Below, piece by piece: positions 1-7,348 of a stretch of DNA of 64,000 nucleotides. Source of the stretch: Escherichia coli (lineage in GTDB: Bacteria; Pseudomonadota; Gammaproteobacteria; Enterobacterales; Enterobacteriaceae); the NCBI RefSeq assembly GCF_003018115.1, contig NZ_CP027457.1, one strand, 5' to 3'. Both the position numbers and the translations under genes were made by a program. The notes below the pieces were generated by a model. The model ran no database searches and was not told the DNA's origin. It saw only the letters and a list, made by a program, of their open reading frames with translations. Within the stretch, counting starts at the first letter, position 1; every line of letters begins with the position of its first letter.

Positions 1-2
1 GG

Positions 3-272
3 GTGGAGAAAAACATCAAAGTGCCACTGACTGAACCCCAGAAAGCGGGGATCGCGTCATTCTGCCCGTATAACATTGGCCCCGGTAAGTGTTTCCCGTC
101 GACGTTTTATAAACGAATTAATGCAGGCGATCGCCGGGGTGCATGCGAGGCGATTCGCTGGTGGATTAAAGACGGTGGCAGAGACTGCCGTATCCGCTCA
201 AATAACTGTTATGGTCAGGTATCCCGTCGTGACCAGGAGAGCGCGCTGGCGTGCTGGGGTATCGACAGATAA
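3..272 (+). CDS. Phage endolysin (lysozyme-type), C-terminal part; 5' end outside window
   Basis: ORF runs to window edge; C-terminal motifs resemble prophage lysozymes; lies upstream of Rz/Rz1. Confidence 0.6.
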   Translation: MEKNIKVPLTEPQKAGIASFCPYNIGPGKCFPSTFYKRINAGDRRGACEAIRWWIKDGGRDCRIRSNNCYGQVSRRDQESALACWGIDR

Positions 273-546
273 GCAGAATATTTTGCTGAAAAATGACGTT
301 GGCCAACGCGGACGGATAACACGAAATCCTGCGAACTGGCAAAATGTAAGTGAATAACGTCAGGAACATTATTTCACGCAGAGGCACCGTAATGGTGCCT
401 TTGTCATTTCTGCGCTTCGCACAAGCGTAAATAAACCAAAGAACCTTTCAGGATGAGCCCTGGTGGATAACCGGCAGTGGTCTGGTTAACCCTCTTTGGG
501 CTGGTTATTCCTGTGCGCAGGGTTCATCACTAAAAGGAAATAACCG

Positions 547-1119
547 ATGAATATGATGACCGTGCCGTTTCACGGCGATTCTCTTTATGTGGTTAACCAT
601 AACGGCGAACCATACGTTCCCATGAAACCTGTCGTTGAGGGAATGGGTATGACCTGGCAGTCTCAACACCGCAAATTGATGGAGAGATTTAAGACCTGCA
701 TCATCGAAATGATGATTCAGCTCCCCGGTGATACTCAGCGTCGTCTGGTTATCTGTCTTGCTTTACGTAAACTTGCAGGTTGGCTGCAAACCATCAACCC
801 AAATAAAGTTAAACCTGAAATCCGCGACAGAGTCATTCAGTATCAGGAAGAGTGCGACGATGTTCTCTATGAATACTGGACGAAGGGTTTTGTCGTTAAT
901 CCTCGTCAAATGAGCGTGATGGAAGAACTCAATCAGGCTTGCGCTGACATGCAACGGGATAAAAACATTGTCAGTGTGTTTGCTACCGGGCTGAATGAGT
1001 GGAAACAGGTTAAAGCTGCGCATGTATCAAAAATCCGCACATTGATAAACGAAGCGAATCTGCTGATTGATTTTGTCCTAGCTGATACAGGCAAAGGGAA
1101 AATAACAAAGGCGGATTGA
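547..1119 (+). CDS. Phage antirepressor-like regulatory protein (accessory gene between endolysin and spanins)
   Basis: 190-aa ORF; N-terminal region resembles phage antirepressor N-terminal domains; family assignment from recall only. Confidence 0.5.
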   Translation: MNMMTVPFHGDSLYVVNHNGEPYVPMKPVVEGMGMTWQSQHRKLMERFKTCIIEMMIQLPGDTQRRLVICLALRKLAGWLQTINPNKVKPEIRDRVIQYQEECDDVLYEYWTKGFVVNPRQMSVMEELNQACADMQRDKNIVSVFATGLNEWKQVKAAHVSKIRTLINEANLLIDFVLADTGKGKITKAD

Positions 1120-1133
1120 TGGAGAGGTGGCTA

Positions 1134-1268
1134 ATGATATCGGATAAAATCATAACGCTGACAAAGACCATTTGTGTGATTGTCGGCGTTTCATTTTCGC
1201 TAATGATGGTTGCTCTTTTTCTTTCCATAGCCTGGATGGCGTTGAGTTCGGTAGGGCTGGTGGGGTGA
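1134..1268 (+). CDS. Hypothetical small hydrophobic protein (about 44 aa)
   Basis: Short ORF read from sequence with GGAGAGG Shine-Dalgarno-like motif just upstream; single hydrophobic stretch; stop overlaps Rz GTG start; below ORF-track size cut-off. Confidence 0.25.
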
Positions 1269-1708
1269 GCATAAACCGAATTATTTCCGCGTTTACCGTT
1301 ATTCTGCTGGTGGTCTGTGGTGTGCTTAGTCTGGGGCTGAATCATTACCGTGATAACGCCATCGCCTACAAAGAGCAGCGCGATAAAGCCACATCCATCA
1401 TCGATGATATGCAGAAGCGGCAACGTGATGTAGCAGAACTTGACGCCAGATACACAAAGGAGCTTGCTGATGCTAATGCGACTATCGAAAGTCTCCGTGC
1501 TGATGTTTCTGCTGGTCGTAAGCGCCTGCAAGTCGCCGCCACCTGTGCAAAGTCAACGACCGGAGCCAGCAGCATGGGCGATGGAGAAAGCCCAGGACTT
1601 ACAGCAGATGCTGAACTCAATTATTACCGTCTCAGAAGTGGAATCGACAAGATAACCGCGCAGGTTAACTACCTGCAGGAATACATCAGGACGCAATGCC
1701 TGAAATAA
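1265..1708 (+). CDS. Rz: Spanin inner-membrane subunit Rz (GTG start)
   Basis: Internal start of track ORF 1172..1708; product closely resembles lambda Rz (NHYRDNA..YK.QRDK and AGRKRL motifs). Confidence 0.85.
1470..1655 (+). CDS. Rz1: Spanin outer-membrane lipoprotein Rz1, embedded in +1 frame of Rz
   Basis: 61-aa nested ORF with lipobox-like LVVSAC and proline-rich segment, as in lambda Rz1. Confidence 0.7.
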
Positions 1709-1738
1709 TTTTTTTGCAAATCACAAAGTCCATTTAAT

Positions 1739-1765
1739 GAGCCCCGCGATGCGGGGCTTTTTTAT
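1739..1765 (+). terminator. Rho-independent terminator after Rz
   Basis: GC-rich hairpin (gccccgcg..gcggggc) followed by T run. Confidence 0.6.
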
Positions 1766-1910
1766 GTACGCAGTAAACGCGCTTCACACGCGCGACTTAT
1801 GAACACAGAACCTTTCAGGATGACCCTTGAGGATGCCGGTTTGGTGATCGGTGCCTTTCTGTGGGCCGGAATCCTGTGTGACAAGGTTCATCACTAAAAG
1901 GTGTGCACTG

Positions 1911-2453
1911 ATGAATTATCCAACTATCGTTAACGGCATCGATTTTCGAGATCTGATTTTTGTGGCAAACAACGATCCGGTTACAGATTCTTTTATGGTG
2001 GCAAAAGCATTTGGAAAGCTGCCGAAGAACGTAGTTCGTGACATTGAACGAACCATAGAAGCTTGCCCTCCTGGGTTTGATACAAAGCTCAACTTTGAGC
2101 TTTGCTATAAAAACAATGAGTTACAGAATGGTAAGCCGCAAAAATTCTACCGTCTCCGCAAGGATGGGTTGATGCTTTTGGTTATGTCCTACACCAAAAA
2201 AGAAGCAATGCGTATCAAAATTGCTTACATCAACGCATTTAACTGGATGTACGCCATGCTTCAGGTTGGTCATCGTCAATTTGAAGAAGAGAGAAATGCC
2301 GTAATGCTGGAGTACATGAAAGAGAAGGATGTTGCCAGCATGTCAGGTCGCCTGCTAAATCGCTGGGGCAAAATTAAGAAGCCACAGTTGCTGGCTAGAA
2401 TTGAACGCCTTGAACAGCACGGGCAAACCGTAATCCCCGGACTCATCAATTAA
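1911..2453 (+). CDS. Phage regulatory protein, Rha-like
   Basis: Internal Met of track ORF 1851..2453; N-terminal region resembles Rha-family phage regulatory proteins (recall). Confidence 0.55.
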   Translation: MNYPTIVNGIDFRDLIFVANNDPVTDSFMVAKAFGKLPKNVVRDIERTIEACPPGFDTKLNFELCYKNNELQNGKPQKFYRLRKDGLMLLVMSYTKKEAMRIKIAYINAFNWMYAMLQVGHRQFEEERNAVMLEYMKEKDVASMSGRLLNRWGKIKKPQLLARIERLEQHGQTVIPGLIN

Positions 2454-2934
2454 CGGCAGTACCGCGAAACAACCCAAGCCAGTAAGTGGGGAAATAACAC
2501 TGGCAGCCACTGAAAGATGAACCTCCAGCCTTATGGCAAAAAAGATTCTTTGTGGTGGCGGACTGATGGAAAGACATCGGTTATTGCAGAGGCCATTCAA
2601 TGAGTGGTCTCGACAATGGCTTATACCCTACACGGGATAACTTAATTGATATCCTTTTTAACGGATAAAGGCATTTCAGCCTGACATAGCCATGCGCCGT
2701 ATCGTCGCCGTATTCCTGCATTAACAGAGACCGCAGCCCGACAGGGAGACTCCTCTGCGAGAGTGTGCGGGGATAATCAAAAACGATACACACCGGGGTT
2801 TACCGCGTTAACGGAGCGCGGCGTTGTCCCCTCATGGTCGCTGGTCCGGTGCGATGGTGGAAGAAACTGGATTTTGTTGCAACTGATAACCATTATCATT
2901 TTACGGGTCCTTTCCGGCGATCCAGGCCGTTACG

Positions 2935-2946
2935 GGGCGGCGACCT
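2935..2946 (+). other. cosN cohesive-end sequence GGGCGGCGACCT
   Basis: Exact lambda 12-nt cohesive-end sequence read about 175 bp upstream of Nu1 start. Confidence 0.75.
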
Positions 2947-3121
2947 CGCGGGTTTTCGCTATTTATGAAAATTTTCCGGGGAAAATCATGTCGGTACTTC
3001 TCGAACATAACTATTTGTTTTTTCTAATATCGAATCCGTAAAGGTCCGACATGAAAACGCCTGAAAAAGTCATTTTCGGGCACTTTCATGTCGGACCCTG
3101 TATTTGTTGTGAGACTGTTTC

Positions 3122-3641
3122 ATGAAGGTTAATAAAAAGAAACTTGCCGAAATTTTCAACGTGGATCCGCGAACGATTGAACGCTGGCAGTCTCAGGGGC
3201 TCCCTTGCGTCTCCGGAGGTGGTAAGGGCGTTGAATCTGTATTTGATACCGCCACGGCAATTCAGTGGTATGCGCAGAGGGAAGCTGATATCGAAAATGA
3301 AAAACTCCGTAAAGAGGTTGAGGATTACAGGGCTGCCAGCGAGGCAGATCTCCAGCCTGGGACTATTGAGTACGAACGCCATCGACTTACGCGTGCGCAG
3401 GCTGACGCCCAGGAGCTGAAGAATGCCAGAGACTCCGCAGAAGTGGTGGAAACCGCATTCTGTACTTTCGTGCTGTCACGGATCGCAGGTGAAATTGCCA
3501 GTATTCTTGACGGGATCCCTCTCTCAGTACAGCGGCGTTTTCCGGAACTGGAAAACCGACATGTTGATTTCCTGAAACGGGATATTATCAAAGCCATGAA
3601 CAAAGCAGCCGCGCTGGATGAACTGATACCGGGGTTGCTGA

Positions 3642-3667
<26 letters not shown>
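3122..3667 (+). CDS. Nu1: Terminase small subunit
   Basis: 181-aa product near-identical by recall to lambda Nu1. Confidence 0.95.

Positions 3668-7348
<3,681 letters not shown>

Follow-up and report, generated by a model that had tools for sequence, protein, structure and literature searches.

In phage lambda, the stop codon of the endolysin gene R and the start codon of the spanin gene Rz overlap as ATGA. Small membrane proteins with accessory roles in lysis are also known, among them the antiholins S107 of lambda and S21-71, the 'releasin' gp25 of Mu, and LysA and LysB of P2. Here we describe a small open reading frame (ORF) of Escherichia coli that, relative to the lambda map, occupies the place of R before Rz. 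It lies in contig NZ_CP027457.1 (assembly GCF_003018115.1), in a stretch of 64,000 nucleotides that we call the window. Positions 1-4000 of the window are the late region of a lambdoid prophage similar to Shiga toxin (Stx) phages, and the small ORF is found there between the antirepressor gene ant and Rz. We conclude that it is very probably a genuine translated gene.

The junction with Rz is like that of lambda in its four-base overlap. It is unlike it in the upstream partner, which is here a 44-codon membrane-peptide ORF from an inserted cassette and not an endolysin gene. The small ORF resembles the genes of the accessory lysis proteins in that it encodes a small membrane protein and lies in a late operon together with holin, endolysin and spanin genes. 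It differs from them in showing no sequence relation, in having one helix without a charged cytoplasmic tail and an unconserved dual start, and in occurring with two unrelated sets of holin and endolysin genes. With the membrane anchor of Rz, the product shares a short, weakly basic N-terminus and one hydrophobic helix with predicted N-in orientation; in contrast to Rz, it has no periplasmic domain, no match to PF03245 and no significant sequence similarity.

As a hypothetical protein, the product already has catalogue entries (RefSeq, phrog_4906, XECs191). A first-pass annotation of this DNA had called the ORF unannotated, which was incorrect: RefSeq WP_032295774.1, ORF53 of phage P13374 and the PHROGs family phrog_4906 all list it, and these are the same entity as the window ORF, with no difference. 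The 49-residue protein is identical to WP_032295774.1 ('hypothetical protein'), which the Prokaryotic Genome Annotation Pipeline (PGAP) starts at ATG 1119 and places between a 'phage antirepressor N-terminal domain-containing protein' and a 'lysis protein'. ORF53 of P13374 (YP_006906870.1) is the identical ORF, likewise between ant and Rz. The hidden Markov model of phrog_4906 matched at full length (E 5.2e-22, residues 1-44 on profile positions 6-49 of 49) and was also matched by the divergent member P0035 and by those of the L027 type; this family carries no assigned function in PHROGs. New in the present analysis are the probable true start, the behaviour as a module, the presence in a second phage backbone, and a series of small membrane ORFs at this site.

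The exact 49-residue protein was found on 216 public contigs and a common 43-residue variant on at least 1000, all named hypothetical. A protein search gave 27 clusters, and each cluster with a named source was labelled E. coli or Shigella. By Megablast, window 1050-1330 (3' end of ant, the ORF, and 5' end of Rz; 281 nt) had matches in 749 of 5,426 complete E. coli genomes (median per matched genome, 4 places) and showed 100% identity with E. coli O178:H19 strain 2012C-4431. A 451-nt query with the context of O157-type prophages, flanks included, was matched in 2,008 of the complete E. coli genomes. The small ORF was present in 276 phage records, nearly all of Stx-converting phages. The older records of 933W, phi24B, Min27 and Stx2 phage 86 carry no annotation for it; in 933W, the unannotated ORF sits between ant and Rz in the same layout as in the window.

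A profile search of 1.84 billion representative proteins gave 29 matches. The 17 that were inspected were members of the phrog_4906-type family or frameshifted or truncated fragments, and none of these 17 hinted at a function. Pfam gave only sub-threshold noise (DUF7186, E 0.039) and NCBIfam no match for the protein. The small ORF is unmentioned in a comparison of Stx-phage lysis cassettes (PMC8136144), in the d_ant/24B_1 paper (PMC4426718) and in a spanin census (PMC6139136), and text searches with its sequence and accession found no match in the main texts of papers.

Start, product and conservation of the small ORF

We compared 83 loci (80 from IMG/VR and 3 annotated records), which carry 20 distinct nucleotide alleles with up to ~26% divergence. 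In the window, three in-frame start candidates, TTG 1116, ATG 1119 (49 codons) and ATG 1134 (44 codons), precede the stop TGA 1266-1268. The ATG equivalent to 1134 was present in all loci; the five upstream codons occurred only in the ant-linked context and were not conserved. Three unrelated upstream sequences each placed a Shine-Dalgarno-like motif 4-7 nt before this ATG (GGAGAGG/GGAGTGG, GGGAGGA and AGAGGT/AGGGGT). From this sequence comparison, ATG 1134 is the most likely translation start.

The first-pass annotation had described an ORF of 44 to 49 codons with a good Shine-Dalgarno-like motif, one predicted transmembrane helix and a stop that overlaps the GTG start of Rz. Each of these points was borne out. 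The two ATG codons give the two lengths, and GGAGAGG precedes ATG 1134 by 6 nt. The product is strongly hydrophobic, with a mean of 2.54 in its best 19-residue Kyte-Doolittle window, and an AlphaFold2 model of it has one helix at residues 2-39 with a predicted local distance difference test score of 90. The TGA and the GTG at 1265 share bases as GTGA (1265-1268), and the Rz start in PGAP is identical. Two lysines and one aspartate stand ahead of the helix and no charge behind it; because the charges precede the helix only, the positive-inside rule suggests that the peptide would be oriented N-in and C-out.

Length by itself says little. The chance of an open frame of 45 codons is ~0.11 with random codons, and the first 4 kb hold 53 ORFs of at least 25 amino acids. 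The length is thus within chance, and the case for a gene therefore rests on comparison with relatives. The frame was unbroken in all 83 loci; their sole indel spans a complete codon behind the ATG. Each of the 276 phage records aligned across at least 80% of the peptide. No stop or frameshift was found in the 20 alleles or in the phage records. Every allele kept a length of 43-44 residues and the hydrophobic helix, and the frame was still open where dS reached ~0.5-0.7. For the deepest allele pairs, dN/dS was 0.24-0.33 (Fisher p 0.0008-0.009). Conservation along the peptide showed helical periodicity with a peak at 106 degrees per residue (permutation p 0.03), and the invariant residues S20, F21, S31, W34, L37 and G41 lie mostly on one side of the helix.

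A published ribosome-profiling (RIBOseq) signal is available for a homologue, XECs191 of O157:H7 strain Sakai, which is 61% identical to the window protein over 49 residues. It is alike in length and in its predicted single transmembrane helix, and unlike in being a separate allele with a divergent C-terminal half. XECs191 (coordinates 1945984-1946130) is one of the 465 intergenic ORFs for which RIBOseq support was published (Hucker et al. 2017, PMC5597208). In LB medium it had a transcript value of 30.0 reads per kilobase per million mapped reads (RPKM), a translatome RPKM of 12.6, a ribosomal coverage value of 0.43 and an ORF coverage of 0.55; the paper predicted an inner-membrane location and a single transmembrane helix, and its classifier rated the ORF 'real' (PMC5597208). 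That paper neither assigned XECs191 to a lysis region nor discussed its function. The first-pass annotation had proposed to examine conservation in related prophages and ribosome profiling, and would have given up the gene if there were neither conservation nor a translation signal; both were found, the translation signal on the homologue XECs191.

The first-pass annotation had also considered a relic of an exchanged lysis cassette. In such a reading, the ORF would be a non-functional leftover, a 5' membrane segment of an older Rz or other lysis gene that is open through recent descent and T-rich composition. An N-terminal membrane segment followed by Rz does resemble a duplicated Rz 5' end, there are short motif echoes (WMA; ICVIV versus ICIIV), and a pooled test of variants against the consensus was non-significant. 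However, local alignments to four Rz N-termini were no better than those of shuffled sequences (z -0.8 to 1.1) and there was no similarity at the DNA level, so a duplicated or relic membrane segment of Rz was rejected. The absence of broken frames at the dS given above, the start and Shine-Dalgarno motif re-created in three unrelated contexts, and the RIBOseq signal on a homologue also speak against a relic, which we consider very improbable.

Other candidates for coding in this interval were examined and rejected. An N-terminal extension of Rz has a frame open across the small ORF but no conserved start; TTG 1172 is missing elsewhere. Two minus-strand ORFs, 1010-1531 (173 aa) and 1150-1272, are both disrupted in locus L003. 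As a separate observation, the RNA of window 1100-1310 is predicted to fold at -68.2 kcal/mol (z -3.2 versus shuffles), with the region of the small-ORF Shine-Dalgarno motif and start (~1110-1143) paired with the 5' coding part of Rz (~1273-1308).

Genomic contexts of the small ORF

The features of the late region in the window are as follows.

3..272, plus strand: 3' end of the endolysin gene R, phage-21-type lysozyme (ORF list; 'lysozyme' in an identical record)
440..546, plus strand: structured leader before ant (direct repeats D2/D3, alignment, RNAalifold)
547..1119, plus strand: ant, antirepressor, 'd_ant' of Stx phages (PF10547 P22_AR_N, E 7e-46; phrog_524; PGAP)
1121..1127, plus strand: Shine-Dalgarno motif GGAGAGG, 6 nt before ATG 1134 (read from the sequence)
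1134..1268, plus strand: small ORF, 44 codons and stop (phrog_4906, E 5e-22; start kept across contexts; predicted single helix)
1265..1708, plus strand: Rz i-spanin gene with GTG start (PF03245, E 5e-35; phrog_13; PGAP 'lysis protein' with identical start)
1470..1655, plus strand: Rz1 o-spanin gene inside Rz in the +1 frame (ORF 1440-1655; lipobox LVVSAC; Shine-Dalgarno motif AAGGAG 8 nt upstream)
1739..1759, plus strand: intrinsic-terminator-like hairpin after Rz/Rz1 (9 pairs, 7 of them G-C, then a T run)
1911-2453: Rha-like regulator gene
from 3122: terminase genes

The full-length R homologues of loci L027 and L086 carry PF00959 (Phage_lysozyme), the name d_ant for the Stx-phage antirepressor is from PMC4426718, the stop of ant is TGA 1117-1119, and an Rz1 homologue is annotated in 933W.

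In every case, the endolysin gene lay upstream of the small ORF, which closed the inserted cassette at its 3' edge. Breakpoints of homology were at its start (window ~1129-1137) and at its stop (1268), and the ORF therefore behaves as a separate module.

Four types of sequence were found upstream. One is the P22_AR_N ant, as in the window. The commonest, in O157-type prophages, is a gene for a 60-residue tail-anchored membrane protein (phrog_1115). In the third, an ANT/KilAC antirepressor gene and the small ORF enclose a hydrophobic ORF of 31 residues (phrog_6632): it begins in an overlap with the stop of ANT and ends 2 nt ahead of the small ORF. In the fourth (L021, L022), ant is truncated by an insertion, and the inserted ORF, judged by eye, is a putative insertion sequence (IS) ATPase. 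Another insertion was noticed in L003 (Stx2a phage Stx2_EH0787), where a 296-aa ORF at 1635-2525, a putative IS transposase by eye, splits ant in its 5' part and spares the small ORF and Rz further downstream. In E. coli strain E9 (L091 3311-3493), the upstream phrog_1115 homologue is a pseudogene with an internal stop and the small ORF is intact, so the two are not strictly co-dependent.

Downstream, five types were found. In ~70 loci, Rz overlaps the small ORF as GTGA. In L003 and 933W, Rz has its own ATG 7 nt on. In L009, L011-L014 and L020, a module of ~900 bp follows exactly after the stop (for example, L012 2654-3551); it consists of a 28-38-residue hydrophobic ORF and a gene for a Dam-like DNA methyltransferase (phrog_56), has GGTGA on either flank, and provides the ATG of Rz. 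In L026, a different methyltransferase gene (phrog_67) is at the same point. In L073, the genes before Rz are a second, truncated phrog_1115 copy and a relative of 28 residues.

The small ORF was also found in a second backbone, that of the phiP27-like prophages L084, L085 and L091. Here two other holins go with a GH108 endolysin, and Rz does not adjoin the small ORF; in their displayed region, Rz/Rz1 is unannotated. A gene for a small lipoprotein lies 5 nt after the small-ORF stop. This is a gene of the phiP27 backbone, and phiP27 itself has the lipoprotein without the small ORF. The lipoprotein has the lipobox LLVGC, belongs to phrog_7528 and is encoded past the endolysin region (L084 3141-3322; L091 3677-3832; phiP27 L32, L092 2953-3108). 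A mini-spanin made of the small-ORF product and this lipoprotein was considered and is not supported: the small-ORF product lacks a periplasmic domain, and the lipoprotein also occurs where the ORF is missing.

The slot between R and Rz also holds a chain of other tiny hydrophobic ORFs with overlapping or near-touching stops and starts. They are the 60-aa phrog_1115 ORF, its truncated 38-aa copy, 28-aa relatives of phrog_4493/3246, and the 31-aa phrog_6632 ORF after ANT, none with an assigned function (L027 2310-2492; L073 2431-2547 and 2561-2647; L012 2656-2772; L084 2903-2998; equivalents in L026 and L029). The small membrane ORFs of the slot (phrog_1115, phrog_4493/3246 and phrog_6632) may belong to a wider class.

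Probable coupling to Rz and possible roles of the peptide

We compared the product with the classes of small lysis proteins and related peptides. As to holins and antiholins, which have two or more transmembrane segments (classes I and II) and a charged cytoplasmic C-terminal tail, it differs in its one helix (residues 2-39) and an uncharged C-terminus (...SSVGLVG); it matched no holin family in Pfam or PHROGs, and the actual holin gene (PF04971) is upstream of R in related loci. The pair of starts, ATG 1119 and ATG 1134, that might recall a dual-start motif exists only in the ant-linked context. As to i-spanins, whose membrane anchor is joined to a periplasmic coiled-coil domain of roughly 100 residues, the product has only 44 residues, of which ~8 are past the helix; it did not match PF03245, nor did it resemble the N-termini of Rz. 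As to o-spanins, it lacks the lipobox [LVI][ASTVI][GAS]C: its sole cysteine is in KTIC, KILC or KGLC, with I or L at -1, at the start of the helix. It does share with type I toxins (Hok, TisB, Ibs, Ldr) the character of a small hydrophobic single-helix peptide, with grand averages of hydropathicity of 1.6-1.8. It also has the trait of a relay ORF, a stop that overlaps or nearly touches the next start.

This last trait held in every context. The stop was at most 8 nt from the next start: the GTGA overlap, 7 nt in L003, 2 nt in L012 and L073, and 5 nt in L084. The Rz start was GTG where it overlapped the small-ORF stop and ATG where it lay a few nucleotides downstream. For the overlapping GTG, the spacing to the nearest purine-rich tract is too short for a Shine-Dalgarno sequence, and no well-spaced one is present. 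Translational coupling to Rz is moderately likely because the GTG lacks a usable Shine-Dalgarno sequence exactly at the overlap, because an ATG is used when the genes are apart, and by analogy with R and Rz of lambda. Cassettes consisting of a leader and antirepressor gene, or of the gene for the 60-residue membrane protein, have been inserted just behind the endolysin gene, with the small ORF as their last element. In the mechanism we propose, ribosomes terminating on the small ORF would re-initiate on Rz, and the small ORF would thereby restore a coupling that the inserted cassette had broken.

The same geometry would be expected if the ORF were purely a translational relay, in which only its translation and its termination at the next start matter for restoring R-to-Rz coupling and the peptide is inert. 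The short distance to the next start throughout, the poorly served GTG exactly at the overlap, the constant position at the 3' edge of cassettes in two phage backbones, and weak overall amino-acid constraint are all consistent with such a relay. However, a relay needs neither a fixed length of 43-44 codons nor a hydrophobic helix, and all alleles keep both. The low dN/dS of the deep comparisons and the conserved helical face are likewise unexpected for an inert peptide, and the geometry does not tell the two readings apart, since tight packing is common throughout the late operons of phages. We regard a relay with an inert product as unlikely.

The fixed length, the kept helix, the one-sided conservation and the low deep dN/dS argue that the peptide itself acts in the inner membrane as well. 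It would insert N-in and C-out, act by contacts along one face of its helix, and be a dispensable accessory factor late in infection. A modulating role late in infection would be the most economical guess, though one of rather low probability; the part in lysis that the first-pass annotation had envisaged is suggested by the position of the gene.

The peptide might alternatively be a moron payload unrelated to lysis, serving in superinfection exclusion or host-membrane modulation or acting like a toxin, and possibly expressed in the lysogen. In favour of a payload, the ORF travels with various cassettes, occurs in the phiP27-like backbone without an adjoining Rz, and is often paired with small membrane ORFs (phrog_1115 or phrog_6632 upstream, phrog_4493/3246-like downstream); transcript and footprints were seen in uninduced Sakai cultures. 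Expression in uninduced cultures can, however, stem from a minority of spontaneously induced cells. A simple consensus scan of both strands over ~1100-1300 gave no promoter-like site, and Rfam no match there. The peptide had no match in Pfam or NCBIfam, a search outside which the PADLOC library of defence systems lies. This explanation, too, has a low probability in our judgement.

The reading that we favour overall, though with no more than even confidence, is that of an accessory inner-membrane peptide of the late operon whose translation termination feeds ribosomes to Rz. Several observations weigh against it. Amino-acid constraint on the peptide is weak and uneven, as estimated from the allele comparison: variant bases relative to the consensus codon were 23 synonymous to 40 non-synonymous (p 0.14 versus neutral), replacements were only marginally conservative (p 0.06-0.12), dN/dS was 0.4-0.8 and non-significant in closer allele pairs, and it was close to or over 1 in some lineages (~1.5 in L086). 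To our knowledge, lambda, phage 21 and the cryptic prophages of K-12 lyse without the small ORF. The small ORF is not tied to Rz, SAR (signal-arrest-release) lysozyme or pinholin, which counts against a specific partnership with any of them: since it occurs in the phiP27-like backbone, its role cannot depend on them. The coupling is read from geometry alone. XECs191 is a homologue and may share multi-mapped reads. Its signal was modest and came from uninduced cultures (PMC5597208).

In view of the uneven dN/dS and the non-significant pooled tests, the constraint looks like the keeping of an open frame and a hydrophobic helix with one conserved face, the sequence itself being loosely held and not tightly fixed.

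A more far-reaching proposal, for which we see little probability, is that phrog_4906 is an unrecognised component of the lysis cassette of Stx phages. This could take two forms. In form (a), the peptide would tune the timing or efficiency of the last lysis steps through helix-helix contacts. In form (b), the ORF would act as a movable adaptor: by handing ribosomes on to the next membrane-protein gene, it would allow foreign cassettes to enter behind the endolysin gene while keeping the spanin genes from being silenced.

Leader of antirepressor-type genes and significance of the small ORF

A conserved leader of ~105 nt was noticed before three unrelated antirepressor-type genes: the P22_AR_N ant, the Rha-like gene and ANT/KilAC. 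We found 44 instances in 7 variants among 91 sequences. Copies are at window 440-546 and 1807-1910, the latter before the Rha-like gene, and at L084 2103-2220, L020 224-343 and L019 1810-1926. In the consensus fold predicted by RNAalifold, 5' CCUUUCAGGAUGA.CCYUG pairs with 3' CARGG.UUCAUC.AC.UAAAAGG, with one compensatory pair only. The closing helix pairs with the Shine-Dalgarno sequence of ant and would hide it. The leader had no match in Rfam; it may be a translational operator or a target of a small RNA.

A terminator-like hairpin, AGGCACC-GUAAU-GGUGCCU followed by UUGUCAUUU, is at window 382-400, ~110 nt past the stop of R; it was read by eye and is absent from the list of the terminator scan. 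Rfam gave no credible RNA family over window 1-4000.

The main outcome of this analysis is a tidier record. The gene is very probably real, most likely starts at ATG 1134, is an independent module at the 3' edge of cassettes, and is very unlikely to be a relic of Rz. It fills an interval that was left blank in the classic annotations of 933W, phi24B and Min27. Matches to the small ORF or its surrounding region were found in ~750 to 2,000 of the 5,426 complete genomes of E. coli, often at more than one place. Lysis of Stx lysogens releases Shiga toxin, so any factor that shifts late expression or the timing of lysis is medically relevant. If form (a) above were true, phrog_4906 would affect toxin release through the timing or efficiency of lysis.

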